From the NCBI RefSeq assembly GCF_002854065.1, contig NZ_CP024147.1: a stretch of 64,000 nt of DNA, one strand, 5' to 3'. The stretch is from Escherichia coli (lineage in GTDB: Bacteria > Pseudomonadota > Gammaproteobacteria > Enterobacterales > Enterobacteriaceae). The notes under the pieces were generated by a model. It was not told where the DNA came from, made no database searches, and saw only the letters and a list, made by a program, of their open reading frames with translations. Both the position numbers and the translations under genes were made by a program. Shown here piece after piece: positions 142 through 63,822 of the stretch. The first letter of the stretch is position 1, and each line of letters begins with the position of its first letter.

Positions 142-156
142 GGTAATGACTCCAAC

Positions 157-660
157 TTATTGATAGTGTTTTATGTTCAGATAATGCCCGATGACTTTGT
201 CATGCAGCTCCACCGATTTTGAGAACGACAGCGACTTCCGTCCCAGCCGTGCCAGGTGCTGCCTCAGATTCAGGTTATGCCGCTCAATTCGCTGCGTATA
301 TCGCTTGCTGATTACGTGCAGCTTTCCCTTCAGGCGGGATTCATACAGCGGCCAGCCATCCGTCATCCATATCACCACGTCAAAGGGTGACAGCAGGCTC
401 ATAAGACGCCCCAGCGTCGCCATAGTGCGTTCACCGAATACGTGCGCAACAACCGTCTTCCGGAGCCTGTCATACGCGTAAAACAGCCAGCGCTGGCGCG
501 ATTTAGCCCCGACGTATCCCCACTGTTCGTCCATTTCCGCGCAGACGATGACGTCACTGCCCGGCTGTATGCGCGAGGTTACCGACTGCGGCCTGAGTTT
601 TTTAAATGGCGGAAAATCGTGTTGAGGCCAACGCCCATAATGCGGGCGGTTGCCCGGCAT
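157..660 (-). CDS. insB: IS1 InsB reading frame (167 aa); expressed as InsAB' transposase by -1 frameshift at the A6C motif (597..603, minus strand)
   Basis: ORF track 167 aa ending LNIKHYQ; reverse complement of 597..603 is AAAAAAC inside the insA/insB overlap. Confidence 0.93.
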
Positions 661-854
661 CCAACGCCATTCATGGCCATATCAATGATTTTCTGGTGCG
701 TACCGGGTTGAGAAGCGGTGTAAGTGAACTGCAGTTGCCATGTTTTACGGCAGTGAGAGCAGAGATAGCGCTGATGTCCGGCAGTGCTTTTGCCGTTACG
801 CACCACCCCGTCAGTAGCTGAACAGGAGGGACAGCTGATAGAAACAGAAGCCAC
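579..854 (-). CDS. insA: IS1 InsA (transposition repressor, 91 aa)
   Basis: ORF track 91 aa [37 protein letters not shown]..., recognised InsA. Confidence 0.95.
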
Positions 855-909
855 TGGAGCACCTCAAAAACACCATCATACACTAAATCAGTAAGTTGGC
901 AGCATCACC

Positions 910-992: not shown

Positions 993-1160
993 ATGAACAA
1001 ATTTATTAAAGTTGCACTGGTAGGTGCAGTACTGGCTACGTTAACTGCATGTACTGGTCATATTGAAAACCGTGATAAGAACTGCTCTTACGACTACCTG
1101 CTGCACCCAGCAATTTCTATTTCTAAAATCATTGGCGGTTGCGGTCCTACTGCACAGTAA
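993..1160 (+). CDS. yhfL: Small lipoprotein YhfL (55 aa), MNKFIKVALVGAVLATLTAC lipobox signal; absent from the ORF track (below 60 aa)
   Basis: ATG at 993, TAA at 1158..1160; translation MNKFIKVALVGAVLATLTACTGHIENRDKNCSYDYLLHPAISISKIIGGCGPTAQ matches YhfL from memory. Confidence 0.85.
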   Translation: MNKFIKVALVGAVLATLTACTGHIENRDKNCSYDYLLHPAISISKIIGGCGPTAQ

Positions 1161-1201
1161 GTCTCTGACAGAAATCAGCTAACACCGGTTTAATTGCCCG
1201 A

Positions 1202-1236
1202 CGCCCTCTGGATTTTCCGAGGGCGTATTTGTTTCT
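1202..1236. terminator. Intrinsic terminator hairpin between convergent yhfL and yhfS (CGCCCTCTGG ... CCGAGGGCG then T-rich)
   Basis: GC-rich inverted repeat followed by TATTTGTTTCT. Confidence 0.6.
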
Positions 1237-1266
1237 GCATTCTTTTCGAAAACATCATTCACAAGA

Positions 1267-2352
1267 TTAAATACTGGCAATACTCTCACGCAAAATCCGC
1301 AGCACCGTCTCTTCACCGCTGCGATTCGGGTTAATGCGAATCGCACAATGTTCGAGTTGCGGATTCGCCTGGCGGAACGTTCCGGAAAGGCGATAAAAGA
1401 GCGGCGGGATTTCATATTTCGACTCTGCACCGACCGGGTAAGGCAACGCGCCACGCTTTTGCGCTTCTTCCAGCACCCTGGCGGCAATCGGCTGATGAAA
1501 CTCGACAATCAACACCTTCGACTGCGCATTGGCAATGACGGCGCTTTTCACTTCCGGCACTGCACCACCGTTGAGCAAAGCCAGCAACCGTTCAGATACC
1601 CCTGCCTGCACCGCGTGCATCACTGGCGCGAACACCAGCCCACGCAACACTTCCAGCGCCTGTGAGCCCTGGATCTGGCTGCCGCCGGAGTAAAGCGTGG
1701 CGCGAATCCGACTAATAACATCGGCATCGCCAACCACTGCACCAACGCCCTCCGGCCCAAACAGCTTGAAGCAGGAGAATGTCGAGACATTCGCGCCGCA
1801 TTCACAGCCGATTCGCGCCACCTTCATCACCGCATAGTTGTCATCGGTTAACGCTGGAACACCTGCCGCGCGCAACGTTGCCAGCACATCTGCCAGCACA
1901 TAGCTGTCCTGCGGCTGCTGGCGCGTATGCTGCACCAGCGCGGCATCAGGTTGTTGCTCGTCGACGACCTGCTTCAGTGCCGACAGGGCATTGAAATCAG
2001 CAGTAATAAGCGTCAGCCCCATCTGCTCAATAATAACCCGTGTCGTTGGGTAAACAGGCGCGTCATGCACCAGAAGACGCTGCCCCGGTTTGAGCAAAGC
2101 CGCCAGCCCGGCGCGAATCGCGCCAGTCCCCGCGCCCTGCACCAGCGCCGCCGCTGGTGCATGAAACGCATCTGCCAGCACCTGCTCCACCCGCTGGGTA
2201 ATGCGCGGTTGATTCAACCCTGGAGTTAACCCTAAATCACCGCCAGTAAGAAACTCGCTGCCGGGGAAATGGCGGCAGATGGTGTCCACCAGCGCAAACT
2301 GCTTTTGCTGCGCTTCATTAAGCGTCAGGCTTTGCAGAGGAAACGTCTTCAT
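1267..2352 (-). CDS. yhfS: YhfS, PLP-dependent enzyme family protein of unknown function (361 aa)
   Basis: ORF 361 aa, length and synteny match K-12 YhfS. Confidence 0.85.
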   Translation of the reverse strand: MKTFPLQSLTLNEAQQKQFALVDTICRHFPGSEFLTGGDLGLTPGLNQPRITQRVEQVLADAFHAPAAALVQGAGTGAIRAGLAALLKPGQRLLVHDAPVYPTTRVIIEQMGLTLITADFNALSALKQVVDEQQPDAALVQHTRQQPQDSYVLADVLATLRAAGVPALTDDNYAVMKVARIGCECGANVSTFSCFKLFGPEGVGAVVGDADVISRIRATLYSGGSQIQGSQALEVLRGLVFAPVMHAVQAGVSERLLALLNGGAVPEVKSAVIANAQSKVLIVEFHQPIAARVLEEAQKRGALPYPVGAESKYEIPPLFYRLSGTFRQANPQLEHCAIRINPNRSGEETVLRILRESIASI

Positions 2353-2363
2353 AGGTGCATTCC

Positions 2364-3668
2364 TTAAGCCGGAATAAACAGGCCAAACCAGTAAAGAACA
2401 TTCAGCAGGATGCCGGTGATCATTACTGCCACGACCGGTGCCGCCATTTTCTGTACCGGACGGCCCAGGGATTCGTTGAGGAAGTAAATGGCAACCGCGA
2501 TAGAGAATCCGGTATAACCCGCCATCTTAATTGCTGCGAAAATCGAACCGACCAGCAGCGCCACTTCCATCAGCATATTCATGGCGTTACGGATGTTATC
2601 CGACGCATTACGCACCGACGGGTAGCGTCCCAGCCATTTGCCGATAGAACGAAGCAGCAAGACTTCCGCCGAAATAACCACTGCGCCTAATACCGCTGCA
2701 ACCATCGGATTCGGCGAGAGATAGCCCACCGCATAAACAAAGGTAAAGCCCGCAACTGCATACACACCCGTTGCTAAGGCGGTGGTGGCAATCAACGGTA
2801 CAAAACCCAGCCCGCGCATAAATTCTGCCAGTGCCGCCTGGTTGATCAGCGTTTGCGATTGTTCCGGCGTTACGCCTGCGGAATATGCTTTCTCAAGGGT
2901 GAAGATCGACACTTCACTGCCAGCAAAAATCTTCATGCTGGCAACGGCGGCAATCAGCGCCCCTACAATAGCGATATACGGTAAGTTTTTGATAATCCGC
3001 GACGTGCGTTCTTCAAACACCGAAAGCCCGCTGGCATCGATGTCATTTTCATCACGATGACGCAGGTCGTGAGTTATCGCGATCCCCAGCAGCATCACCA
3101 TGCCAATAAAGATTTCGATGGATTCAGGGTTAAGATGTGGGAAATAGCGCACGACTACCACACGGGTCATCAGAACAACCACGGCGGCGACCAGACTTTG
3201 CTTCCAGCCAAACTGGTAGAAAATCGCCACCAGCGGGAACAGTGCAAAAGCAGAAACCACCGGCGAGCTTAATTCCCCGAGGCTACCTAATACATCCACC
3301 GGCAGCGCGGTCAGCAGCTGGTTTACTGGCAACAGGCAAGTAAGGATCAACACGCCCCAGATAGCGCCAAGACCAAACGCCATCAGGCTGTTTATCGCCA
3401 GTACGCCGAGGATATCGGTAGGAAGAAAGAGTAACCATGCGTTTAGCAGCCCGGTTTTCAGGGTAAAAGAGATCCCCACCGAGGCCACAAAACCAATGCT
3501 CAGACCAAAAGCGATACTCCCCGCCTCGCGACGGTTCATATAGCCTTCAATCAGTTGCGGCAGGATCGGGCGGATGCCGTCATGAAAAACAGCCGCCGAG
3601 CGATGCGCCAGAAGCGATGTCATACCCGTCAGGCACGCCACCACGATAATCTGAATATACAGATCCAT
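2364..3668 (-). CDS. yhfT: YhfT, multi-pass inner-membrane protein, putative transporter (434 aa)
   Basis: ORF 434 aa, highly hydrophobic; synteny. Confidence 0.85.
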   Translation of the reverse strand: MDLYIQIIVVACLTGMTSLLAHRSAAVFHDGIRPILPQLIEGYMNRREAGSIAFGLSIGFVASVGISFTLKTGLLNAWLLFLPTDILGVLAINSLMAFGLGAIWGVLILTCLLPVNQLLTALPVDVLGSLGELSSPVVSAFALFPLVAIFYQFGWKQSLVAAVVVLMTRVVVVRYFPHLNPESIEIFIGMVMLLGIAITHDLRHRDENDIDASGLSVFEERTSRIIKNLPYIAIVGALIAAVASMKIFAGSEVSIFTLEKAYSAGVTPEQSQTLINQAALAEFMRGLGFVPLIATTALATGVYAVAGFTFVYAVGYLSPNPMVAAVLGAVVISAEVLLLRSIGKWLGRYPSVRNASDNIRNAMNMLMEVALLVGSIFAAIKMAGYTGFSIAVAIYFLNESLGRPVQKMAAPVVAVMITGILLNVLYWFGLFIPA

Positions 3669-3679
3669 AGTCGTGCCTT

Positions 3680-4033
3680 TTATTTCAGATGGTTAATCAG
3701 CATCGGAATCGCGTGTTCGACGTGCTCAACGGAAAGGCCAAACGCCACTTTTCCTTCAGCGATCATTTTGGCGATATGCTCGTCTTTCGCTTTAATGCCT
3801 GGTTTGGCAATGGTGCAACTTTTGTTATAGCCAATCACCGCGATGGCAATCGACAATGCCGCGCCCGCACCGGTATTACACGCGCCGATGTAATAATCCA
3901 GTTGCCCGGATTTCACCTTCATTGCCGCTTCCATGTCGTTGTGAATGAAAACTTCAAAACAGCCAGGAGCCGTCGCTTCAATAGTTTTTTTAATCTGCTC
4001 ACGCTGTAAGCCTGCAACGCCAATCTTTTTCAT
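3680..4033 (-). CDS. yhfU: YhfU (DUF2620 family, 117 aa); ORF-track start at 4072 is probably an over-extension
   Basis: Internal Met MKKIGVAGL gives the K-12 length of 117 aa. Confidence 0.75.
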   Translation of the reverse strand: MKKIGVAGLQREQIKKTIEATAPGCFEVFIHNDMEAAMKVKSGQLDYYIGACNTGAGAALSIAIAVIGYNKSCTIAKPGIKAKDEHIAKMIAEGKVAFGLSVEHVEHAIPMLINHLK

Positions 4034-4043
4034 GAGTCTGTCC

Positions 4044-4922
4044 TTATTGGAAAAATTGAGAGGGATTTTCACGTAACATCACATCCACATCGGCCTGACT
4101 GAATCCTGACTGGCGCAATTGCGGAATAAAGGTGGTTAGTAAATAGTCATAGCCATAACCACCGTTGGCTTTTAAATGGGAGCGGCGCGTAATATCCATC
4201 GACAGCATGACGCGGTTCAGCAACCCACGGTCGCGTAGCGCATGAAGCATCGCAATACGCTTTTCGTCCGGGTAGTAACTGTTCTTACCAATGGTGTCGA
4301 ACTGCACATACGCGCCGAGATCGATCATCTTCAAAATGTTGTCGAGGTTGTCTTTCAGATCGCAGTGACCAACGGTGACGCGCGAAAGATCAACTCCGTG
4401 GGCTTGCAACAAAGCCAGTTGCTCCAGCCCCATCGTGCTGAACGACGTATGCGTGGAGATCGGGCGTCCGGTCTGGTTATGTGCCAGCGCGGCGGCAATA
4501 AATACCTTCTCTTCCAGCGGCGTAATCTTCCCTTCGCTGGAGCCGATCTCCGCGATGATCCCGGCTTTCAGTTCCGTGCCATCGATACCCTGCTCAATTT
4601 CATCGACCATCTCCTGCGCCAGTTCCTGCACGCTGCGGGTCGCCACATGTTCCGGGAAAAACGCGTCCTGGTAATAACCGGTACAGGCCACCACGTTGAT
4701 CCCCGTCTCGCGCATTACATCGAGCATAAATTGCGCATTGCGCCCCATGTAACGGTTGGTCATCTCAATCACATTACGCACGCCCCGGGCCATCAGGTCG
4801 TTCATCTCCTGGCAAATGAACGAATACTGATCAAGGCGGCAGTCCACGTTGTTTTTAAAGCCGGAGAGATCAATATGCAGATGCTCATGGGCGAGGGTGT
4901 AACCCGTCGGATCAAAACTCAT
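4044..4922 (-). CDS. php: Php, phosphotriesterase-homology protein (amidohydrolase superfamily, 292 aa)
   Basis: ORF 292 aa, HxH metal-binding start [20 protein letters not shown]; synteny. Confidence 0.9.
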
Positions 4923-6145
4923 AGGGTGTCTCCTGCAAACCGGAGGGAGGAAAGAAAAGAGCGACCATTTTGTGGCGGTGGCGCACGGAAAAATTCACAC
5001 ACGGTAGCCCCCACATCAGAAAGCGTGGTGCGCACACCGATCTGCGTAGTGACCAGCCCTTGCTGATAAACCAGCACTGGCACCACTTCACGGGTATGGT
5101 GGCTGTGACCAATGGTCGGATCGTTACCGTGATCCGCCATCACGACCAGGCAATCATCTGGCTGCATCGCCTCGACAAGCCGGGCAAGATTACGGTCAAC
5201 GACCTGCAAACGTTCGGCATAACTTGCGACGTCTTCTGCGTGACCAGCGAGGTCGGTTTCCTGAATGTTGGTGCAAATAAACGCTGTCTGATGGGTGATA
5301 AATTCGTCGAGGGTGATATCCATAATCCGCTGGCTATCCACCAGATTTTGCCAGCTCACGCCATAAGGATTGTTGACGATATCTGCCACCTTACCCACCA
5401 GCACGGTTGGCACGCCTGCTTCATACAGTTTTTGTGGCACCTGCACTTTTTCATCGACGCCATAGCCCATATGCACGACCTGGAAACCGTTGTCATAAGC
5501 GCCAGAACGCGGCGCATTAATACCAATAAAGCGCCCTTCTTTGCTTTCTGCGGCATCGAGAATACGCTGACTGTCGGTTAACAGGCCGCCAAATGTAATG
5601 ACCCGACCGACCTGTACCTGGTCACGCACGATACGACCAATTTTGATTGCGTCGTCAAAAGAGATCACAGAGAGATTGGCGGTAATGTTATAGACTTGGC
5701 CTAAATCCGCCTCGAGATTATCGCCAATCGCAACCGCCTGATTGACTCACAGAAATTGCAGTTCATCGCCACGGCGCTCCACCTGCCAACCGGCGGATAC
5801 TAATGCCTGCTCAACACGGTCAATCACATCGCGAAAGGGCATCCGCAGCGGCGGTAACGGGCGCGTGCCTAAAATTTCCTGATGCCCCATAAAGGTATCG
5901 CCACCTTCATGTTGCAGCTCTGCCACACCCCAGGTTGCGGAGTCTGACGGCTGCATATCACCTGGCGCATAACCCAATGCGTTGATTAGCCCCAGCTTCT
6001 CCAGCGTTGGTAGCTGCAAATGCGGCAGCTGGCTCAGGATGTGACCACAGGTATTCGCTCCGGCATCTTGCGGGCGCACCAGCGTGACATCTTTCATTGC
6101 ACCTACGCCAAAGCTATCAATCACTAACACCACAAATCGCGCCAT
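4919..6145 (-). pseudogene. yhfW: yhfW (phosphopentomutase-like, 408 codons) interrupted by an in-frame TGA at 5747..5749 (codon 133)
   Basis: ORFs 5747..6145 and 4919..5668 are in the same frame; the combined span of 1227 nt equals K-12 YhfW of 408 aa plus stop. Confidence 0.8.
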
Positions 6146-7308
6146 TACGCCTCCAGAGAGTTTCCAAGACTGTCATAACGACCGACAATTTCCGGTTCGC
6201 CACGCTGAATACCCGATACCAACACCACATCACTGCGGGTAACAAAAATCTGCGTACGAAAACAGAACACTACGGCACTACTCACCGGAAACTCGCCTGC
6301 TAACGGCAGGTAATAGTCGATACTGCTGTCATCCACAGTTTTGAGATTTGTTTCAGTAATCTTTTGATTTTCTGGCGTAAACACCAGCGCATGTTGCGCA
6401 TGACCACGACGGTAATAACCGCCGCCGTAGCAGTAGCTGTCGCCACGGAAATGGTGGGAAATTTCACTTAACCAAAGCATCGCGATACGTTCAGGCTGAT
6501 CGCCCTGCTGGTTTGCCGGAATTGTGCCCGTCAGCGCATGACCGGGTTCGGCATGAGTCACACCGTATTGCGCCAGCAATGGCAACGAAGTGCAGCTGGT
6601 CGCAGAAGGTGCGTTCAGTTGCTCAATCGCAATACCAGATTTCGCCAGTTGATCCCGTGCCTGTATCAGCGTGTGAAGATTCGGTGTCGGCAAAACTTTC
6701 CCGGCAGCCTCATCCCAAAGCAGGCAAGGGAAATGGGTTAGTCCGGCTAAATGCAGCCCCGGCAGTTTCTTAATTTCAGCAACCACCTCGTGCAGCGAAT
6801 GCTGTACAAAACCGCTCTCCTGCCCCGGATAAAGAAAATCATCGTCGCTATAAACTTTGAGCAGCACAGACTGGATTCGCCCGGCTTTCACCGCCGCCGC
6901 AGAAACTTCCCGCGCTTTGTCGAGAGTAAACACGGTGATGACGTCGGTGCCCTGTTCAACGGCGTCAGCAACCTGATGACAAGGGATTTGTACCAGATGC
7001 CCCTGATGCGCCACCGGCAAACCAGCGCGGCGCATGACTCGCGCCTCTTTGTAATCCACCGCCACAATGCCGCTGTAGCCCAACGCCAGCAGTTTTTCCG
7101 CCAGCCATGGGTTACGACCGAATTGTTTGGTCATCAGATACAGTTCAATGCCGTAAAGCCGCGCCGTCTCAATCTGCCGCTTACCGTTTTCCAGTATCTG
7201 ATCCACGTCGATCACCCAGCTGTCCGGGGCGATCTTGCCCTGCTGCCACAGACTTAAAGCGGCGGAAATCAGCGCCGGGTTCTGGCGTTTCAATGCTTCT
7301 ACAAACAT
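6145..7308 (-). CDS. yhfX: YhfX, alanine-racemase-fold (fold type III PLP) protein, 387 aa
   Basis: ORF 387 aa; synteny; 4-nt ATGA-type overlap with yhfW start. Confidence 0.85.
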
Positions 7309-7391
7309 CTTGTTGCCTCGTTTCTGTTCCTTGAATTAAATATTCATTTTTTTGAATATTTAGATTGTGCGACGTGGATTTGCCGAATGCC

Positions 7392-7754
7392 TCAGATACT
7401 TTCGTTAGCAGCCATCCATAATCCATAAAGGTTGGCCAGCAAATAGCCTTCTTCACACGGGTTAACTTCCAGTGCGAATTCCTTCAACAACACCTGATGC
7501 AATTGCACAACGGCTTGCCAGTGGCTGGATTGCGCCAGCTCTGCCAGCAACTCGTTATCCAGTGGCTCAATTTCTTCACCACGGCGACTGCGCATCAGTG
7601 CACTCGCCATATGTGTCATCGCCATCGTTCCTTGCTCACTGCGCACCGGCAGATGGCACTCTGTTTCCAGTACCTTGACGACCTGCATCATGCCTTTGCA
7701 GATGTCCTTATCAATAACGCCTGCATCGCAAAGCAGGTTGAGTCTGGTTTCCAT
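7392..7754 (-). CDS. yhfY: YhfY (120 aa); start taken at internal Met METRLNL
   Basis: K-12 length 120 aa; ORF-track start at 7796 would overlap yhfZ. Confidence 0.75.
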   Translation of the reverse strand: METRLNLLCDAGVIDKDICKGMMQVVKVLETECHLPVRSEQGTMAMTHMASALMRSRRGEEIEPLDNELLAELAQSSHWQAVVQLHQVLLKEFALEVNPCEEGYLLANLYGLWMAANESI

Positions 7755-7770
7755 ATCAGATGCCTTTCGT

Positions 7771-8676
7771 TTAATAACTCGGTTCCTGTTCCCCACTCAC
7801 CACCCGTTGTTGATGGGCGAGCAGGGCGTGTTTATCTACAACGGCACGCAGCAGTTGTTGCATTGGGTAATCATCGACTCGCGTCAGGACCACGGCTTCG
7901 GTGGCCTGTAAAAATCGCGGATCGTCTGTGAGCGGCGTCGCCTCTAATCCCAGCATGGTCAGTTCGTTTTCCGCCACCACGTTCCAGATAACCGCATCAA
8001 CATCGCCTTTAACAATGCGTTGTAAACTCTCGTGATAAGAGAGATCGACTCGTTCCACATCACTACCGCCAAAAAAGACATCAGTCATGATTTTCTGATC
8101 CGCCGAACGGTTATCCAGCCCCACGCGCTTCACGTTTGCGGACTCGCCTTTACGGCAAATCAACTGGTGCTCGCCAACGTAGGTGTGCGGCCCCAACTCC
8201 AGCGCGAGGCATAACCCTTTTTGCGTGAGATAACTTTCCGCCGCCAGTCGGGAAACCACCGCCATGTCATACACGCCGTTAAGTAAACACTCCACGCGAA
8301 TATCCGCGCCGCGCATATGCGCATAGTAAAAAGGAATGCCATCAAACTGGGCTTTCAATCCGCTCGCTAAACCTTCGTACAAGCGGGTATAGGGCAAAGG
8401 CATCGCACATACCACGTTGTTGATATCCACATGACTCAGCAATGCTTTGTTATCCATCTCGACCAGATAACTGCCATTGCGCCCACGGCGTTCAATCCGT
8501 ATCGCTCCGCTTGATTCCAGCGTTTTCAACGCGGCCTGCGTCAGGCCAACGGATGAACGGCATTCAGTGGCCAGTTCATCTATAGTTTTCAATCGGTTAC
8601 CGCACTTTTCACCCAACAAATAACGGGCCAGCGTCGTGATGACGACGCCTTCTTTTTTGATAAACGTTCGACGCAT
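7771..8676 (-). CDS. yhfZ: YhfZ, putative regulator with N-terminal HTH (301 aa)
   Basis: ORF 301 aa; synteny. Confidence 0.85.
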   Translation of the reverse strand: MRRTFIKKEGVVITTLARYLLGEKCGNRLKTIDELATECRSSVGLTQAALKTLESSGAIRIERRGRNGSYLVEMDNKALLSHVDINNVVCAMPLPYTRLYEGLASGLKAQFDGIPFYYAHMRGADIRVECLLNGVYDMAVVSRLAAESYLTQKGLCLALELGPHTYVGEHQLICRKGESANVKRVGLDNRSADQKIMTDVFFGGSDVERVDLSYHESLQRIVKGDVDAVIWNVVAENELTMLGLEATPLTDDPRFLQATEAVVLTRVDDYPMQQLLRAVVDKHALLAHQQRVVSGEQEPSY

Positions 8677-8834
8677 AATAAATTTTCAGTAAATTGAATA
8701 TTTATATCTTCAGGAATTTGAAGATAAGGCGCAACTGTGAGATGTGGAAACGGCGAGGCGCTTCACATTTTTTCGGATTATTGCAAATGAGGATAAAAAA
8801 ACCGGGTTTCCCCGGTTTTGGCATTAATGTTAAA

Positions 8835-9839
8835 TTACGGCTTCGCCACAAAACCAATCGCTTCGTACACCGCTTTTAGCGTACGGGAAGCGTGCGCGCT
8901 GGCTTTTTCTGCGCCGTCTTTCATCACCTGTTGCAGGAAGGCTTCATCGTTGCGGAAACGGTGGTAACGTTCCTGCAATTCAGTCAGCATACCGGAAACG
9001 GCATCAGCCACTTCACCTTTCAGATGACCATACATCTTGCCTTCGAACTGTTTTTCCAATTCCGGGATACTCTGGCCCGTTACCGCAGAAAGGATATCCA
9101 GCAGGTTGGAAACGCCCGCTTTGTTCTGCACATCGTAGCGAACTACCGGCGGCTCGTCGGAGTCGGTGACCGCGCGTTTGATTTTCTTCACTACCGATTT
9201 CGGATCTTCCAGCAGGCCAATAACGTTATTGCGGTTATCGTCAGACTTGGACATCTTCTTGGTCGGCTCCAGCAGCGACATTACGCGCGCGCCGGATTTC
9301 GGAATAAACGGCTCCGGCACCTTAAAGATATCGCCGTACAGCGCGTTGAAACGCTGGGCGATATCACGGCTCAGTTCCAGGTGCTGTTTCTGGTCTTCAC
9401 CCACCGGTACCAGATTAGTTTGATACAGCAGGATGTCCGCTGCCATCAGCACCGGATAGTCAAACAGACCAGCGTTGATGTTCTCGGCATAACGCGCAGA
9501 TTTATCTTTAAACTGCGTCATGCGGCTCAGTTCGCCGAAGTAGGTATAGCAGTTCAGTGCCCAGCCTAACTGCGCATGTTCCGGTACGTGGGACTGAACA
9601 AAAATGGTGCTTTTCTCAGGATCGATACCACAAGCCAGATACAAGGCCAGCGTATCCAGCGTCGCTTTACGCAGCTTCTGTGCATCCTGGCGCACGGTGA
9701 TCGCGTGTTGGTCAACGATACAGTAAATGCAATGGTAGTCATCCTGCATGTTTACCCACTGACGCAGCGCACCCATGTAGTTACCAATGGTCAATTCACC
9801 TGAGGGCTGTGCGCCACTAAAAACGATGGGCTTAGTCAT
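8835..9839 (-). CDS. trpS: Tryptophanyl-tRNA synthetase (334 aa), HIGH-like TIGN and KMSKS motifs
   Basis: ORF contains [10 protein letters not shown] and KMSKS. Confidence 0.97.
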
Positions 9840-10590
9840 TTTTCGATTCCTGATTTTCGCTATGCGGAAGCCCTAATGCGGGCAGAAGGTCATTTATAGA
9901 CTGATAAATTACATCAGGCTGGCTGAGATCGATAGCCTCGCCGTAGTTATATCCGTAGGTTAAGCCAACTGATGGGCAACCTGCCGCTTTTGCTGCCTGA
10001 ATATCATTGCGTGAGTCGCCAACAAACAGCATCTGTTGTGGAGCAATTCCCATCCGCTCAGCCACCAGTAACAGCGGGTCCGGATGCGGTTTTTTGTTTT
10101 GCACATCATCACCACCAATCACCACGCTGAAGTATTTGGCGATATCTAAGGCTTCGAGCAGCGGCGCGACGAACGGCGTCGGTTTGTTGGTGACCAGGCC
10201 TAGCGGCAGGCCTTTAGCCTGCAACGCGCCCAACGTATCGGCAACGTGCGGGAACAAAAACGTCCCCTCTTCGGCAACCTCGCCATAGTAGCGATCGAAC
10301 AGTTTACGCAGAATACGTACCTGTTCTTCTGCCGGAATGTCGTCATCAACGGGCGGTTTACCCATTGTTTTACGCAGAGTCGCACGTTCCTGACGCGCCC
10401 AGGTCAATGCGCGCTCCATCAGAACATCTGCGCCGTTACCAATCCAGGTAATAACGCGTTCTTCACCTGCGACGGGCAACTCCAGCGCATACAGCGCCAT
10501 ATCTACCGCAGCAGCAAGACCGGGAGCACTGTCCACCAGCGTACCGTCGAGATCAAAAGCGACGCCGCGAATATCTTCAAACTTACTCAT
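9832..10590 (-). CDS. gph: Phosphoglycolate phosphatase (HAD family, 252 aa)
   Basis: HAD motif FDLDGTL; overlaps trpS start by 8 nt. Confidence 0.95.
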
Positions 10591-11260
10591 GACTTACCTT
10601 TGCCAGTTCACTGCGCATTTCATCAATGACTTTTTTATAGTCTGGCTGGTCGAAGATTGCCGAACCGGCGACGAACATATCCGCGCCCGCCGCAGCGATT
10701 TCGCCAATGTTGTTCACCTTCACGCCACCGTCCACTTCCAGACGAATGTCAAAGCCAGACTCGTCGATACGACGACGTACTTCGCGCAGTTTATCCAGTG
10801 TTTGAGGAATGAAAGACTGACCGCCGAAACCAGGATTGACGGACATCAGCAGGATCACATCCAGCTTATCCATCACGTAATCCAGATAGCTCAGAGGTGT
10901 CGCCGGGTTAAATACCAGACCCGCTTTACAGCCATTTTCTTTAATCAGTTGCAGCGTGCGGTCAACATGCTCGGAGGCTTCTGGATGAAAGGTAATGATG
11001 CTGGCACCAGCGGCAGCGAAATCAGGCACAATGCGATCGACAGGTTTCACCATCAGGTGTACGTCGATAGGGGCGGTAATGCCATAGTTACGCAAGGATT
11101 TCAGCACCATTGGCCCAATCGTCAGATTGGGAACATAGTGGTTATCCATGACGTCAAAATGCACGACATCAGCGCCAGCTGCCAGGGCTTTTGCGGTATC
11201 TTCACCCAGGCGGGCAAAATCAGCCGACAGAATTGAGGGGGCAATCAAATACTGTTTCAT
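10583..11260 (-). CDS. rpe: Ribulose-phosphate 3-epimerase (225 aa)
   Basis: ORF 225 aa recognised; overlaps gph start. Confidence 0.95.
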
Positions 11261-11277
11261 CCGCTTCTCCTTGAGAA

Positions 11278-12114
11278 TTATTTTTTCGCGGGTGAAACGA
11301 CTCCTGGTTTGTACAAAGCCAGCAGTTCGTCCACCTTTTTACGTGTGCCGCCGTTGCTGCTTATACTGCGTCGAACTTTGACGACATGCAATTTTGCGCG
11401 CTGATACCACTCACGCGTTAACATCGTATCGTGATTGGAGATCAGCACAGGAATATGGCGATCAACCAGACCTTCGGCGATCTCCGCCAGATGCGCTTGT
11501 TGTTCAAGCGTAAAACTGTTTGTGTGATACGCCGTAAAGTTGGCGGTCGCAGACAGCGGTGCATAAGGCGGATCGCAATAGACGACGGATGCATCATCTG
11601 CGCGCGCCATGCTATCGGCGTAAGACTCACAATAGAAAAAGGCATTCTGCGCTTTTTCAGCGAAGTGATACAACTCTGCTTCCGGGAAATAGGGTTTTTT
11701 GTAGCGGCCGAACGGCACGTTAAACTCACCGCGCAGATTGTAACGACACAGGCCGTTGTAACCGTAGCGGTTCAAATATAAAAACAGTACCGCCCGACGG
11801 AACGGATCCTGGCTTTTGTTGAACTCTTCGCGGAACTGATAGTAAACCTCGGCGCAATTTGTTTCGGGAACAAACAGCTCGCGTGCGGCCTGTACGTACT
11901 CATCAGTACGCATCTTCACAATGTTATAGAGACTGATCAGGTCGCTATTGATATCGGCAAGGATATAACGAGAAAAGTCGGTGTTGAGAAACACCGACCC
12001 GGCACCTACAAAAGGCTCAACCAGACATTCGCCCTTGGGCAAATGCCGTTTAATATCATCAAGCAGGGGATACTTGCCCCCTGCCCACTTCAAAAAAGCG
12101 CGATTTTTCTTCAT
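11278..12114 (-). CDS. dam: DNA adenine methyltransferase Dam (278 aa), DPPY motif
   Basis: ORF contains [11 protein letters not shown]. Confidence 0.97.
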
Positions 12115-12220
12115 GCTGACTAACTAATTACACCTTCTCCGGCTGTGGAGAAAGCTCCGACAGCATCCAGCGCTTCAGGCAGCTCCCGCAACGATAAACC
12201 ATTGCGGGAGATAACCTTGA

Positions 12221-13507
12221 TTACTTCAGATCGGCCTGTACCTGACGCAGCGGTTTCGCCCACGGGTTTTTGGCCTGGACATCTGCTGGCAATGTAGATA
12301 CCGCTTTTTTCGCCTCTTCTTTCGAAGCGTACACGCCAGAAACCAGGACATACCACGGCTGACCATTACGCGTCGTTTCATAGACAACGTAGTTTTTCAG
12401 ATTCTCTTTCTTCGCCCAACCGTTCAGGTTGTCGTAGTTAGAGGAACTGCTCAGCTGCAGAGTGTAATGGCTGGACGGTGCCGATTTCAACGAACCCACA
12501 TTACCTGCGGTCTTCCCTCCAGCGGCTGGTGTTGCCGTGGTTTGCGCCGGGGATGCCGTCTGTACTGGAGCCGTAGTCGCCGTCTCTTTTGGTGCTGGCG
12601 TAGAAGTCGCAGCCGGTGCCTTCGTGCTCGCCACAGGAGCAGCTGGTTCAGTACGCTTCGGCGTCTGTGCTACCGGCTTCGGTTCCGTTTTCACGGTTGC
12701 TTGCGGTTTTTTCGGTTCAATCACCGCCTGCTGACGAGCTGGACGCGTAGTGGCCGGACGTTCAGCAGTTTGCGTTTTCGCCGTGTCACGCGATGCATTG
12801 CCATTGCGTACTGGCGCGACAGTTGCTGGTTCAGTCGGCAATGTAGAATTGACCGCCACATTGTTCAACTGTTGCTGATTTTGTGGCTGGGTCAGCGCAT
12901 TGTTCAGGTCACCCTGCACTTCAACACGTTGTTGACCATCCGTTGCCGCCGGGGTTTGCCCTTGAGTCGGCGTAGAAGAGATCGGCGGCAGAGAAACATC
13001 CTGCTGAGTATTTTCCGCAGACGTGGTTCCCGGCGCTGGCTGCACGCCATTCGCCTGATCGGTCGCATTGCCAGCAAGATCAATACTCTTCTCGCCAGAC
13101 GCGGTTTGATCGCTGGAAGTGGTCGAGGGGGCTTTTAGCGCAGAACCGATACCGATGATCAACAGCAGTAGAACCAGAATGCCGACGCCCATCATCATAT
13201 ACTGACGAGAAGCGGGTTTACTGGCTGCTTTTTTGCGCTTACGCGGACGACGCTCTACGCGCTCTTCATCCACGGTTTCATCTTCGGACTCGTCAATTTC
13301 TTCTTCGATTTCCGGTTCCTCATTGCGCTCTTTTTGCGCACGAGTCGGACGGCGATCGTCAGTGTCATCAAGTTCAATATCATCAAAATTGATCTGCGGT
13401 TCGCCACGTTCAGTACGCTCAGAACGTTCAGAAGATTGACGAGAACGACCAGTACGACGATCGCTGGGATCGGGTTTCAGCTCGTCTTCTGGTTTGAATT
13501 CATCCAT
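12221..13507 (-). CDS. damX: DamX, cell-division protein with C-terminal SPOR domain (428 aa)
   Basis: ORF 428 aa with acidic N-terminus and Pro/Thr/Ala-rich linker. Confidence 0.93.
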
Positions 13508-13598
13508 TTAACACCCCACTAAAAGGTTAATGCTTACCACGTTGCAATTAACCTGAAGCTAATAGACCGCTTGATAAGCGGCCTGACCTTTCTTGTTG

Positions 13599-14687
13599 TT
13601 ACGCTGATTGACAATCGGCAATGGCGTTAAGAACAAGCTCGTGCGAAACACCGCTGCGAACTTCACTCTTACCAATTGCCAACGGAAGAATTAAGCGCAT
13701 CTCTCCCGCAAGGACTTTCTTGTCACGCAGCATATGCGGTAAATACGCCTGCGCGGACATTTCGCGCGGCCCATTGACCGGTAACCCAGCCCGCGTGAGC
13801 AGAGTTATAATACGCTGCGTTTCGGCAGAACTAAACTGCCCGAGACGTTCCGACGTCCGCGCCGCCATCACCATACCCGCAGCGACCGCTTCACCATGTA
13901 ACCAATTGCCATACCCCATTTCAGCTTCAATGGCATGACCAAAGGTGTGTCCCAGATTCAGTAAAGCACGTAACCCGGTTTCGCGCTCGTCGGCGGCGAC
14001 AACTTCTGCCTTCAGTTCACAACAACGGCGAATACAGTACGCCATTGCCGGACCGTCCAGACGCAACAACGCATCCAGATTCTCTTCCAGCCAGTTGAAA
14101 AACGCACCGTCAAGAATAATGCCGTATTTGATGACTTCTGCCAGCCCCGACGCTAACTCACGCGGGGGAAGCGTTTTCAGACAGTCGAGATCCACCACCA
14201 CTGAAGCAGGCTGGTAGAACGCGCCAATCATGTTTTTACCGAGGGGATGGTTGACCGCAGTTTTGCCGCCAACGGAGGAATCGACCTGCGACAGTAACGT
14301 CGTCGGGACTTGAATGAAACGAACACCGCGCTGATAACTCGCCGCCGCGAAGCCGGTCAGATCGCCCACTACGCCGCCGCCAAGCGCCACCAGCGTAGTA
14401 TCGCGACCATGCGGCTTTTGTAACAACGCCGTAAAGACGGTATCGAGTACAGCCAGGCTTTTATACTGCTCGCCGTCAGGAAGGATAACGCTATCGACGT
14501 TAACACCCGCCTGTTCAAGTACGCCGCGGACCTTATCGAGATACAGAGGAGCCAGGGTTTCGTTGGTGACCAACATGACCTGCTCGCCCGATTTCAGCGG
14601 TAAGAATGAAGCTGGTTCATTAAACAAACCAGATGCGATGGTAATTGGGTAACTACGTTCCCCGAGAGTAACGACAATCCTCTCCAT
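13599..14687 (-). CDS. aroB: 3-dehydroquinate synthase (362 aa)
   Basis: ORF 362 aa recognised. Confidence 0.97.
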
Positions 14688-14743
14688 AACGCGACATCCA
14701 CCTTAATTACTGTACCCGCAGACGAGTGTATATAAAGCCAGAA

Positions 14744-15265
14744 TTAGTTGCTTTCCAGCATGTGAATAATCTGGTTTGCAACCACTTTAGCGCTTTGATC
14801 ATCAGTACGAATGGTCACGTCGGCAATCTCTTCATACAGCGGATTGCGTTCATTGGCCAACGCTTCCAGAACTTCACGTGGCGGTGTTTCAACGTGCAGC
14901 AACGGGCGTTTTTTATCACGCTGCGTGCGTGCAAGTTGCTTTTCGATGGTCGTTTCAAGATAAACGACAACGCCACGAGCGGAAAGACGGTTACGCGTTT
15001 CACGGGATTTCACAGAGCCGCCGCCAGTAGCCAGCACAATACCCTGTTTCTCGGTCAACTCATTGATGACCTTTTCTTCGCGATCGCGGAAGCCTTCTTC
15101 GCCTTCTAAATCGAAAACCCAGCCCACATCAGCTCCGGTTCGTTTCTCAATCTCTTGATCGGAATCGTAAAATTCCATATTGAGTTGTTGAGCTAACTGG
15201 CGCCCAATAGTGCTTTTTCCGGCACCCATAGGCCCAACCAGAAAGATATTGCGTTTCTCTGCCAT
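14744..15265 (-). CDS. aroK: Shikimate kinase I (173 aa); ORF-track start at 15466 is over-extended
   Basis: Start [19 protein letters not shown] (Walker A) at 15263..15265. Confidence 0.95.
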
Positions 15266-15665
15266 TTTTTCGGTACTACTAAGACTATTCGTTAATGATA
15301 AACCCGCTTCGCTCAGAGAGCGCCGCAGGACATGAACTGAAACCTCATAAGATATTGCGAGAGTCAGACTGAAAATTATCTCAATACTCCAGCGGGTTTG
15401 GCAACTGAATAAATCACCCATCCCTCTGCATATCTGGTCGCTGCAAGCGCGCTGCCTTGCTACCACCGCTCTGGCGATAAATCACCGGGTAAGATTAGCG
15501 TAAAAAAGACAGCAAAATGCCGCCTGAATGATAAATCATCATCATGGAACGCAGGCAGCGAAGAGCACCAACTCTCAAATCGGTACTCCTTGTATGCTAA
15601 ATACCTGCGCGCGTCAAATAGATGAAACACGTTCAGCGTAAAAACATTACCGCTTTTACGGCTGT

Positions 15666-40252: not shown

Positions 40253-41744
<1,492 letters not shown>

Positions 41745-41802
41745 AGCCTCGATGATGGGCGTATTATAACCAACTAAAATAGTCAACTATTAGGCCATTA
41801 CT

Positions 41803-42378
41803 ATGATCCGTATTTCCGATGCTGCACAAGCGCACTTTGCCAAACTGCTGGCAAACCAGGAAGAAGGGACACAAATCCGCGTATTTGTGATTAACCCTGG
41901 CACGCCTAACGCTGAATGTGGTGTTTCTTATTGTCCGCCGGATGCCGTGGAAGCCACTGACACTGCCCTGAAATTTGACCTGCTGACCGCGTATGTTGAT
42001 GAGTTAAGCGCTCCTTACCTGGAAGATGCAGAGATCGATTTTGTTACCGACCAGTTGGGTTCTCAGCTAACACTGAAAGCGCCTAACGCCAAAATGCGTA
42101 AAGTGGCAGATGATGCACCACTGATGGAGCGCGTGGAGTATATGCTGCAGTCGCAGATCAACCCACAGCTTGCTGGTCACGGTGGTCGCGTTTCACTGAT
42201 GGAAATCACCGAAGACGGTTACGCCATTCTGCAATTTGGCGGCGGCTGTAACGGTTGTTCCATGGTCGATGTGACGCTGAAAGAAGGGATCGAGAAGCAG
42301 CTACTAAACGAATTCCCGGAGCTGAAAGGTGTGCGCGATCTCACCGAACACCAGCGCGGCGAACACTCCTACTACTAA
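41803..42378 (+). CDS. nfuA: Fe-S cluster carrier NfuA (191 aa)
   Basis: C-terminal Nfu domain GGGCNGCSM. Confidence 0.95.
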
Positions 42379-51964: not shown

Positions 51965-52249
51965 ATGAATATGAAACCGGAAAGCAAAGAAGCGCCAATC
52001 AATATCAGAGCGAAAGCCTCACAGCGTGACCTGATTGATATGGCAGCGAATCTGGTCGCAAAATCGCGCACTGATTTTATGCTGGATGCCGCATGCCGTG
52101 AAGCGCAAGACATCTTATTAGATCAACGACTATTCATCCTTGATGACGAGCAATACGATGCGTTTCTCGCTGCCCTGGACGCCCCCATCACTGCTGAGCG
52201 TCAGGCCAAAATTAACGCGTTGATGAATCGTAAATCGCCATGGGAATAA
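51965..52249 (+). CDS. DUF1778 (TacA/AtaR-like) ribbon-helix-helix antitoxin, 94 aa
   Basis: INIRAKASQRDLIDMAANLVAKSRTDFMLDAACREAQDILLDQRLF...DEQYDAFLAALDAP resembles the DUF1778 antitoxin family; stop overlaps the toxin start (ATGGGAATAA). Confidence 0.75.
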   Translation: MNMKPESKEAPINIRAKASQRDLIDMAANLVAKSRTDFMLDAACREAQDILLDQRLFILDDEQYDAFLAALDAPITAERQAKINALMNRKSPWE

Positions 52250-52725
52250 CGGCTCCTACTCCCCTAACGTCTGAACATAATCTGGCTGACTTTTGCTGTT
52301 CCGATCACGGGATGAATGAATGGCTAAAAAAGAAAGCATTAAAAAATCACAGCTCCGGTCTGTCTCGTGTTTACGTTATCTGTATTGCCAATACCCGCCA
52401 GGTAATCGGCTATTACTGCCTTTCTACAGGCAGTATTCAACGTAATTTGGCCCCTGGAGCCATGCGACGTAATGCTCCCGAATCGTTGCCTGTTGTCGTA
52501 TTAGGCAGACTGGCAATTGATCAAGCCTGAGCAGGTAAAGGGTTGGGCGTCGCATTGTTGAAAGATGCAGTCTATCGCACAATGTCCATAGCTCAACAGG
52601 TAGGGGTTCGTGCGCTCATTGTTCATGCCTTAGACGATTCAGTACGCAATTTCTATCTGAAGTATGCCTTTGTACCTTCACCATTCCAGTCACTTACCTT
52701 ACTGTATCCCATTACTCTGGAGTAA
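52240..52725 (+). pseudogene. GNAT-family acetyltransferase toxin (TacT/AtaT-like), 162 codons, broken by in-frame TGA at 52528..52530
   Basis: ORFs 52240..52530 and 52543..52725 share a frame; the stop falls in LGRLAIDQA*AGKGLGVALL, immediately before the GNAT acetyl-CoA-binding G-x-G motif. Confidence 0.75.
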
Positions 52726-52774
52726 TTTACCTCTACCGGATAGTCACACTGATGAGTCTGATCCGGGAGGGATT

Positions 52775-53806
<1,032 letters not shown>

Positions 53807-62304: not shown

Positions 62305-63822
62305 TTATTCCATTGTTGGATACAGCGGCACATATCCCACATCTTCTACCAGACTCTGCCCCTGCGGCGTTAAAAACCATTCGACCAGTTTTTGTGTTTC
62401 TGACGTTGTATTTTCCCTCGTTACCATAAAGGCATCGACGATATAGGGATATTTGCCGTTGCGAATATTTTCCGCAGTCGGTGTAATACCGTTAATCGCT
62501 AGCAGTTTTATATTTTTATCAGCATTCATTTGCGTCGCGTAATAGCGGAAGGTATAGCCTATTGCGTTGTTTGTATTACGGTATTCGGCAACGACTTTAA
62601 TCATTCCCTCCATCACGCTTGCCACTTCCATTTCCTGCGGCGAGATCATGCGGACATTTTTCATGACCTGTGATTGCATCACTGTCTGGCTGCCAGAGTC
62701 TTCCGGGCGCTGCCAGGTCTGGATCTCCTGATCGTTACCGCCAACAGTACGCCAGTTGGTAATTGCACCACTGAAAATGTCACGCACCTGTTGTTCAGTC
62801 AGGGAATTAACCGGATTATCCGCATTGACGATGAAAACGAATGCTTCACGGGCAAAGGGGGTGTACAGCAAAGTGACACCAGATTCCTTTGCACGTTTTT
62901 TTTGCCCACCGGAAGGTTGCGCCACGAAAATAATATCAGCATCGCCCTTAACGATTTTGTTATATGCTTCTGGCGTACGAGAGTTTTCCAGATAATCCCA
63001 AACGTGAAAATCCTCTGGTATTACACTTAATGCATAAAATGCAGAAGCATAAATTGGGTACGCAGCCGTGGCGCCATCGATTCGCGGCCAGTTTTGCCTA
63101 AACTGAATTTGCGGTTTGCCACGCAGCGGCGTCAGTCGATTATTGAGTTTATCGGGTTGCCAGGCCCAGATATCAATATTTTCGCGTACACCGACACCAG
63201 GATTGAGCTGTTTATATAAATAACCCTGATAACCAGCGACAAAACCAAGCATGAGAAGGATAAACAGGAGGGAATTACGGCAACGTAGCCCGGATGTACC
63301 GGTTAAAGGATGTCTGGTTGGCCGGCCGTACCCCAGCGAAAAACTGATATGCGCGCCAACGGGTATAATGACTATCCACCAGTACTCACCTCCGACTACT
63401 GAGACTAACAAAACGCCCAGCCAGGGGAGCATAAGATCAGCCAACCAACCCGATCCCATCTGGTGAAATTGATAATCTGCCAGATGCAGCGCGATTATCC
63501 AGCCAACCAGGATTAATAAAGCGGGTACTAAAAAAAGACATTGTCGCCAGACGGCTATTTCTCTTTTTTCTGGTGCACTATCGCCTGCCCATACTCGCCC
63601 CGAGAAAAATAGCATTAATGCGCCCAGCGCCAGCATAAAAATGTTGAGCAGAAGGTAAATTGTTGGCGTGATAAGGATATTACAAACTTCAATAATACCG
63701 GCAAGTCCGACACCCAGCATAGCAACAACCGCCGCCAAAAATTGCGTCAGTATGGGGATGCCGAAAAAAGTCATTACCAGCGAGGACAAAATCCATTTTC
63801 TGTTTTGCATTATTCTTTCCAT
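62305..63822 (-). CDS. Uncharacterised fusion protein (505 aa): N-terminal multi-pass membrane domain plus C-terminal PstS-like periplasmic binding domain
   Basis: First about 215 aa hydrophobic; C-terminal domain paralogous to the downstream lipoprotein (QRPEDSGSQT, IGYTFRYY, TPTAENIRNG); -10-like TATAAT 18 nt upstream. Confidence 0.8.
   Translation of the reverse strand: MERIMQNRKWILSSLVMTFFGIPILTQFLAAVVAMLGVGLAGIIEVCNILITPTIYLLLNIFMLALGALMLFFSGRVWAGDSAPEKREIAVWRQCLFLVPALLILVGWIIALHLADYQFHQMGSGWLADLMLPWLGVLLVSVVGGEYWWIVIIPVGAHISFSLGYGRPTRHPLTGTSGLRCRNSLLFILLMLGFVAGYQGYLYKQLNPGVGVRENIDIWAWQPDKLNNRLTPLRGKPQIQFRQNWPRIDGATAAYPIYASAFYALSVIPEDFHVWDYLENSRTPEAYNKIVKGDADIIFVAQPSGGQKKRAKESGVTLLYTPFAREAFVFIVNADNPVNSLTEQQVRDIFSGAITNWRTVGGNDQEIQTWQRPEDSGSQTVMQSQVMKNVRMISPQEMEVASVMEGMIKVVAEYRNTNNAIGYTFRYYATQMNADKNIKLLAINGITPTAENIRNGKYPYIVDAFMVTRENTTSETQKLVEWFLTPQGQSLVEDVGYVPLYPTME

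Follow-up and report, generated by a model that had tools for sequence, protein, structure and literature searches.

A frl-negative allele of the yhfL-yhfS locus in Escherichia coli, probably an ancestral site never occupied by the fructoselysine operon

The window analysed here, a 64-kb stretch of Escherichia coli DNA, starts inside the cysG-yhfL spacer, where an IS1 copy occupies positions 142-909, and continues through yhfL into the convergent gene yhfS. The latter is the first gene beyond the junction and the last of the yhfZ-yhfS cluster, which follows in the order yhfS-T-U-php-W-X-Y-Z-trpS (span 2364-8676 without yhfS), with trpS adjoining yhfZ. The names yhfL and yhfS are those annotated in the genomes XJ34, CUWW06 and 100416, each 100% identical to the window over this stretch. 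Coordinates of the genes beyond yhfS are taken from the CUWW06 annotation. The features of the locus are the following.

142-909, minus strand: IS1 (insA/insB), 768 bp, or 133-918 with its target duplications; in the cysG-yhfL spacer and not part of the frl junction
993-1160, plus strand: yhfL, coding for a small lipoprotein-like protein of the YhfL family (55 amino acids), from the open reading frame list
1172-1191, plus strand: first small stem-loop of the yhfL 3' region, with an 8-bp stem (1172-1179/1184-1191) and the loop TAAC
1201-1236, plus strand: predicted yhfL intrinsic terminator, stem 1201-1211/1216-1226 followed by the T-run ATTTGTTTCT (1227-1236), from folding and alignment
1237-1265, no strand: empty-site-specific segment of 29 bp, GCATTCTTTTCGAAAACATCATTCACAAG, from breakpoint mapping against K-12
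1267-2352, minus strand: yhfS, coding for a PLP-dependent aminotransferase-fold enzyme (361 amino acids), from the open reading frame and annotation
2364-3668, minus strand: yhfT (CUWW06 is 100% identical here)
3680-4033, minus strand: yhfU
4044-4922, minus strand: php
4919-6145, minus strand: yhfW, a pseudogene with a stop at codon 133
6145-7308, minus strand: yhfX
7392-7754, minus strand: yhfY
7771-8676, minus strand: yhfZ

The YhfL protein is identical to WP_001031834.1, and its gene is annotated as yhfL in XJ34, CUWW06, 100416, K-12 and O55:H7. yhfS is 94.7% identical to its K-12 counterpart and 100% identical to that of XJ34. By the open reading frame coordinates, the two genes converge on a gap of exactly 106 bp (1161-1266), the length given in the preliminary description. 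That description had stated that the fructoselysine operon frlABCDR separates these genes in K-12, and the K-12 order is indeed cysG-yhfL-frlA-frlB-frlC-frlD-frlR-yhfS. Within the neighbouring cluster, the phosphopentomutase-like gene yhfW carries an in-frame stop (between DELQFL and VNQ) that is also found in CUWW06 and 100416, whereas XJ34 and K-12 have an intact copy; the yhf cluster beside the junction may therefore be decaying in the lineage of the window.

Two stem-loops lie in the gap. The first (1172-1191; AAATCAGC-TAAC-(A)CCGGTTT) sits between the yhfL stop codon and the terminator; 93% of its cells are paired, two of its pairs have changed on both sides, and one A-C pair is broken in the window. 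The terminator stem consists of eight invariant GC-rich pairs and three variable inner pairs with compensatory changes, and 96% of its cells are paired across nine Escherichia sequences. Taken together, the two stems have 94.7% of cells paired in these nine sequences, against 32-46% when the partners are slid. A consensus terminator scan, which accepts only loops of 3-8 nt between contiguous stems, returned a weak site inside yhfL and nothing else; it missed the hairpin because the eight contiguous GC-rich pairs enclose 10 nt, and folding and covariation were used instead. On the yhfL strand, the GC-rich stem-loop, the U-rich tract and the conserved structure are those of a predicted intrinsic terminator. 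The preliminary description had taken this hairpin for a terminator shared by the two convergent genes. Its presence in the gap stands, and its sharing is not supported by the sequence: on the yhfS (minus) strand no U-tract follows the stem, where the sequence reads CGGGCAAUUAAACC, and no A-tract precedes it on the plus strand, whereas a bidirectional terminator has a U-rich tract after the stem on both strands. The same hairpin also occurs in the frl-positive genomes K-12, O55:H7 and E69, where yhfS is 5.3 kb away. On these two grounds, the hairpin is best read as the predicted Rho-independent terminator of yhfL itself, retained in both alleles. Its GC-rich stem, the T-run after yhfL and the conserved structure resemble the Rho-independent terminators found between convergent genes. 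The missing A-tract and minus-strand U-tract set it apart from the hairpins of the A7-stem-T6 type, which have both and which occupy the corresponding position in Citrobacter, Superficieibacter and Enterobacter and also lie beside trpS in the window.

The operon itself is missing from the window. Neither blastn nor tblastn finds a match to frlA, frlB, frlC, frlD or frlR in the 64 kb (E<=1e-3), and the search with the K-12 island (blastn) and the five Frl proteins (tblastn) reveals no remnant or paralogue, as the preliminary description had stated. On the left, window positions 1101-1236, which comprise part of yhfL and the 76 bp after it, correspond to positions 2623-2758 of the K-12 locus with 134 of 136 bases identical. 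On the right, the match resumes at window position 1266, equivalent to K-12 position 8001, one base before the yhfS stop codon. Between the breakpoints 1236/1237 and 1265/1266, the window has 29 bp where K-12 has an island of 5,242 bp, the segment of about 5 kb that had been expected. The K-12 insert is made up of the frlA promoter region, frlABCDR and a tail of REP/boxC-type repeats, and these repeats are the sole part of the island with matches in frl-less genomes. The 29-mer has no significant similarity to the ends of the K-12 island.

Both states of the locus are common. Among 5426 complete E. coli genomes, 2105 have the contiguous yhfL-yhfS junction and 3297 have at least 80% of the frl island. 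frlB is found anywhere in 3299 of the 5426 (3300 places, single-copy in all but one genome); no carrier has it on a plasmid, and 3293 of the 3299 carriers show the canonical yhfL-frlA junction. The alignment of frl-less genomes to the K-12 junction breaks off at one and the same base in every case. Because the abutting junction is recurrent and frlB lies nearly always at the canonical site, yhfL-yhfS is a single site with two cleanly distinct alleles, which bears out the presence/absence polymorphism first proposed, and the window, by its flanks, its lack of frl and the recurrence of its junction, carries the frl-negative allele of this accessory locus.

Comparison with other genera bears on the direction of the change. 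Using YhfL as an anchor and mapping marker genes by tblastn, we compared at least 39 loci from species-representative genomes; the loci listed are without E. fergusonii, E. marmotae, E. ruysiae and Salmonella. Among them, yhfL and yhfS are immediate neighbours, and frl is absent, in E. albertii, the divergent Escherichia L024, Citrobacter werkmanii, Citrobacter sp. FP75, Superficieibacter electus, Buttiauxella agrestis and Enterobacter sp. ENT03. In at least about 16 further loci (in Citrobacter, Enterobacter, Leclercia, Hafnia, Cedecea, Lelliottia, Pseudocitrobacter, Superficieibacter and Buttiauxella), trpS is the immediate neighbour of yhfL, and both the frl and the yhfS-Z cassettes are missing. 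The frl genes are present in only one of the 39 loci listed, that of E. coli E69. E69 and L024, judged solely by the 6-10% nucleotide divergence at this locus, would represent separate species-level lineages. The 29-mer aligns to the spacers of the frl-less strains S21EC (phylogroup B2), E5 and O145, of L024 and of E. albertii, diverging more with phylogenetic distance across these frl-less lineages, and it is absent from all three frl-positive alleles examined (K-12, O55:H7 and E69). Since a deletion of frl could not recreate an orthologous 29-mer, we infer that the frl-less allele is the ancestral empty site and that frl is a gain. The lack of any frl remnant would then follow from nothing having been deleted.

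A hairpin of another type marks the far end of the cluster. In the yhfZ-trpS spacer (8677-8834), an A-tract, a CCGGG stem and a T-tract (AAAAAAACCGGGTTTCCCCGGTTTT) form a hairpin near 8795-8820, beside trpS; the corresponding K-12 spacer has an extra 131 bp of REP elements. In genera with neither cassette, a hairpin of the trpS type is all that separates yhfL from trpS; in Citrobacter, Superficieibacter and Enterobacter ENT03, it is found between yhfL and yhfS. This distribution suggests that yhfL and trpS were originally a convergent pair with a bidirectional terminator, and that yhfS-Z and, at a later time, frl nested into this pair.

Two other accounts of the missing operon can be weighed against an ancestral empty site. 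One is that frlABCDR was precisely deleted from a K-12-like chromosome, for example by illegitimate recombination or through IS1. No frl remnant is visible, as such a deletion would predict, and an IS1, an element that can cause adjacent deletions, lies 84 bp upstream of yhfL. The junction, however, is not what remains when a K-12-like allele loses its island: it holds 29 bp foreign to K-12, O55:H7 and E69 and conserved out to E. albertii, and the same junction type recurs in the 2105 genomes counted above. The IS1 is a poor agent as well, as it is 327 bp from the frl junction and flanked by an intact, perfect 9-bp target duplication, CCTGTATCG (133-141 and 910-918), recognised by the overlap of the flank alignments. 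The genomes XJ34, CUWW06 and 100416, moreover, have no IS1 at 142-909 and share the identical frl-less junction, so that the IS1 is a recent simple insertion unrelated to it. A deletion is accordingly very improbable, and we consider it effectively refuted. The other account, which the preliminary description had itself raised as a finding that would overturn its claim, is that frl has moved elsewhere in the genome. The part of this genome open to inspection is the 64-kb window, and the lack of frl from the rest is inferred from population data. In the species as a whole, relocated frl is essentially unseen, because frlB is chromosomal and, in all but six of its carriers, located at the yhfL site; it is also single-copy in all but one genome. 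FDAARGOS_1295, a genome with the abutting junction, has a 42-bp REP repeat as its best match to the island and no other part of it. A copy of frl outside the window is thus extremely unlikely, even more so than a deletion.

The IS1 copy is of interest in its own right. The window differs from CUWW06 by 7 SNPs in 61.9 kb and by two reciprocal IS1 differences; CUWW06 carries its IS1, 100% identical in sequence, within a PstS-family gene that it interrupts at the point equivalent to window 62809-62817. IS1 at different sites in near-identical genomes indicates ongoing transposition in this lineage. An IS1 is also present in the same cysG-yhfL spacer of about 12 unrelated E. coli genomes, which suggests that this spacer is a recurrent IS1 target. 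In the frl-positive E. coli B lineage (B, BL21, REL606) and strain C, IS1 is annotated beside a split yhfS ('hypothetical protein' and 'aminotransferase'), which suggests an independent insertion inside yhfS in those strains. Elsewhere in the window, at about 52,000-52,800 (CUWW06 locus 41480-42234), a DUF1778 protein and a GNAT acetyltransferase are encoded downstream of malT in a TacA/TacT-like toxin-antitoxin arrangement; the GNAT gene has an internal stop, and the window is identical to CUWW06 here, the SNPs being elsewhere.

The frl insertion appears to be a single, old event. Diverged frl-positive alleles have the same boundaries, with the left breakpoint common to K-12, O55:H7 and E69 and the right one common to K-12 and E69, which argues for one insertion. 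The frl genes of K-12 are 97-98.7% identical to those of O55:H7 and 91-95.7% identical to those of E69, for which cysG gives 94.5% for comparison; frl genes as diverged as the flanking core genes would make the insertion old. The K-12 insert does not have the marks of a mobile genomic island, namely an integrase or transposase, direct repeats, a tRNA target or deviant composition. It contains only frlABCDR and the REP/boxC-type repeats, with no integrase and no direct repeats, and its GC content is 53.8% against 52.4% in the flanks. A search of the two island ends for direct repeats and microhomology gave only the 6-mer TTAAAT, at chance level. A resemblance noticed by eye, in which the left end of the island would be a diverged copy of the 29-mer and the end of yhfS, was discarded, as its alignment score of 12 lies below the shuffle mean of 14 and better local alignments are found elsewhere in the island.

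A plasmid-like source for the cassette is suggested by its relatives outside Escherichia. The nearest non-Escherichia FrlB homologues, at 86-88% identity, are encoded on Pantoea plasmids within frlA-frlB-frlD-regulator clusters without frlC; the next ones, at 83-84%, are from Serratia and Sodalis. The Pantoea cassette (frlA-frlB-frlD-GntR, on the LPP-1 megaplasmid and on plasmids of ~108 kb) matches the E. coli island in gene order and orientation, and differs from it in the lack of frlC, the plasmid location and the other flanks. It is a relative of the element missing from the window rather than of anything present there. The trait is mentioned in the LPP-1 paper as well (PMC3505739). Salmonella 'FrlB' was rejected as a source, as it belongs to a different, PTS-based pathway. 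With a related cassette plasmid-borne in Pantoea, the frl cassette probably arrived by horizontal transfer, and its source may have been plasmid-like.

The empty allele of the window has a mosaic setting. Over 24 kb of core genes, the window is ~100% identical to CUWW06 and 100416 and ~99.3% identical to XJ34, O55:H7 and O157:H7; its core genes are closest to those of the frl-positive O55:H7 and O157:H7 (99.3-99.8%). The hairpin lies only 10 bp away from where frl inserted, and its alleles are not linked to frl state: one variant is common to the frl-positive K-12 and the frl-negative window, and another to the frl-positive O55:H7 and the frl-negative O145 and L024. The 76 bp after yhfL are 98.7% identical to K-12 and 90.8% identical to O55:H7, while yhfL and trpS are 99.6-100% identical to O55:H7. 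XJ34 matches the window at 99.8-100% from the cysG-yhfL spacer through yhfY (100% from yhfL to yhfY), and then at 95.7% in yhfZ (7771-8676) and 98.4% in trpS; this sharp step in identity at yhfZ resembles the boundary of a recently recombined tract that takes in the whole yhfL-yhfY haplotype. A third haplotype is found in O55:H7 RM12579, whose locus 9074-15546 corresponds to window 993-9839, with flanking core genes 99.6-100% identical. The O55:H7/O157:H7 haplotype has the same left frl breakpoint and the same flanking core genes; its gene content is the reciprocal of that of the window, with the order yhfL-frlABCDR-trpS, yhfS-yhfZ absent and, in RM12579, frlD a pseudogene. In O55:H7, the boundary consists of 14 unique bp between a boxC-like repeat and the trpS stop. 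A loss of yhfS-Z in O55:H7 through repeats common to both K-12 spacers was considered and rejected, as the yhfZ-trpS spacer has REP and no boxC and the junction carries the 14 unique bp; no repeat-mediated mechanism was found. From these mosaic identities in hairpin alleles, in XJ34 and in O55:H7, we conclude that the interval has been exchanged by homologous recombination, by which the two alleles would also have spread.

The same mosaic raises the question of whether the immediate ancestor of the window lineage had frl. That ancestor may have been frl-positive. Homologous recombination with a frl-less donor would then have exchanged everything between the yhfL terminator and trpS for the donor's empty-site, yhfS-Z-bearing haplotype, and the operon would have been lost through this allelic replacement. 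The O55:H7-like core genes on both sides of a K-12-like spacer, the reciprocal content of O55:H7 and the 100% identity of XJ34 from yhfL to yhfY at 0.6% core divergence, ending in the sharp drop in yhfZ of a recent transfer tract, all speak for such a secondary loss. The change could, however, equally fall on the O55/O157 branch, and frl-less O145 has the O55-type hairpin allele, so that frl-less alleles are not foreign to related backgrounds. Vertical retention of the empty site is equally compatible with the data. We therefore hold a secondary loss to be a real possibility, if one we would rate slightly below even; whichever branch the change falls on, the allele itself would be the ancestral empty site and not a deletion derivative.

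Taken as a whole, the locus is best explained, with high though not complete confidence, by a window that carries the ancestral, never-occupied allele and by frl as a single old insertion. At the earliest stage, trpS would have been the next gene after yhfL. In the ancestor shared by Escherichia and several related genera, the convergent yhfS-yhfZ cluster would have stood immediately beside yhfL. A cassette of 5.2 kb, consisting of the frlA promoter region, frlABCDR and the REP/boxC-type repeat tail, would then have entered the spacer a single time, in one Escherichia lineage; it would have landed 10 bp past the terminator stem of yhfL and displaced 29 bp of spacer. Both alleles would then have persisted and moved among lineages by homologous recombination in the flanking core genes, and the strain of the window would have inherited the empty allele or received it by recombination, leaving it without the transporter FrlA, the kinase FrlD, the deglycase FrlB and the epimerase FrlC. 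More speculatively, and with somewhat less conviction than we give to a secondary loss, the frl-positive/frl-negative pair could be an ancient polymorphism older than the diversification of E. coli. It would span species-level Escherichia lineages, be kept by niche- or diet-dependent selection and be recombined as a cassette so frequently that linkage has decayed to within ~10 bp of the insertion point. On this view, the region after yhfL would be a hotspot for nested insertions, taken up by yhfS-Z before frl, and all four combinations of these modules would occur across Enterobacteriaceae.

The presence or absence of frl at yhfL-yhfS is ordinary and already known. The lack of frl in phylogroup B2 and ExPEC has been reported before (PMC5996543; bioRxiv 10.1101/2025.09.14.675865) and has been called a hallmark of B2 (bioRxiv 10.1101/2025.09.14.675865), with predicted growth on the substrate in 0-3% of B2 strains against 69-91% in other groups (PMC5996543); frl is also missing from a B1 mouse isolate (PMC12021133). 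The frl-less B2 and ExPEC strains have the same site and the same two alleles, and the junction of the window is found in B2, for example in S21EC. The window differs from B2 in its core genes, which are of the O55:H7/O157:H7 type (~99.3%), and in its junction region, which matches that of B2 strains at only ~92% identity. The literature found covers gene presence and predicted phenotype, and does not address the polarity of the change, the breakpoints or the 29-bp empty-site segment. To the published absence we add the direction of change, with the empty site as the ancestral state.

For the strain of the window, the lack of FrlA, FrlD, FrlB and FrlC predicts that it does not use the dietary Amadori compounds fructoselysine and psicoselysine. 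This growth phenotype is a prediction from the pathway described by Wiame et al. 2002 and 2004 and from genome-scale models, in which frl-less B2 strains are not expected to grow on fructoselysine (PMC5996543). The frl trait separates B2/ExPEC from most other E. coli and is under diet-dependent selection during evolution in the mouse gut, where frlR, frlA and the yhfL-frlA spacer are recurrent, diet-driven adaptive targets (bioRxiv 10.64898/2026.05.27.728231). The practical relevance of the present finding extends little beyond strain typing and metabolic prediction, for which the 29-bp segment offers a simple marker that tells a never-occupied site from a deletion. B2 strains are often said to be 'missing' or 'dispensing with' frl; the comparison made here argues that the empty site is ancestral and that frl was gained.
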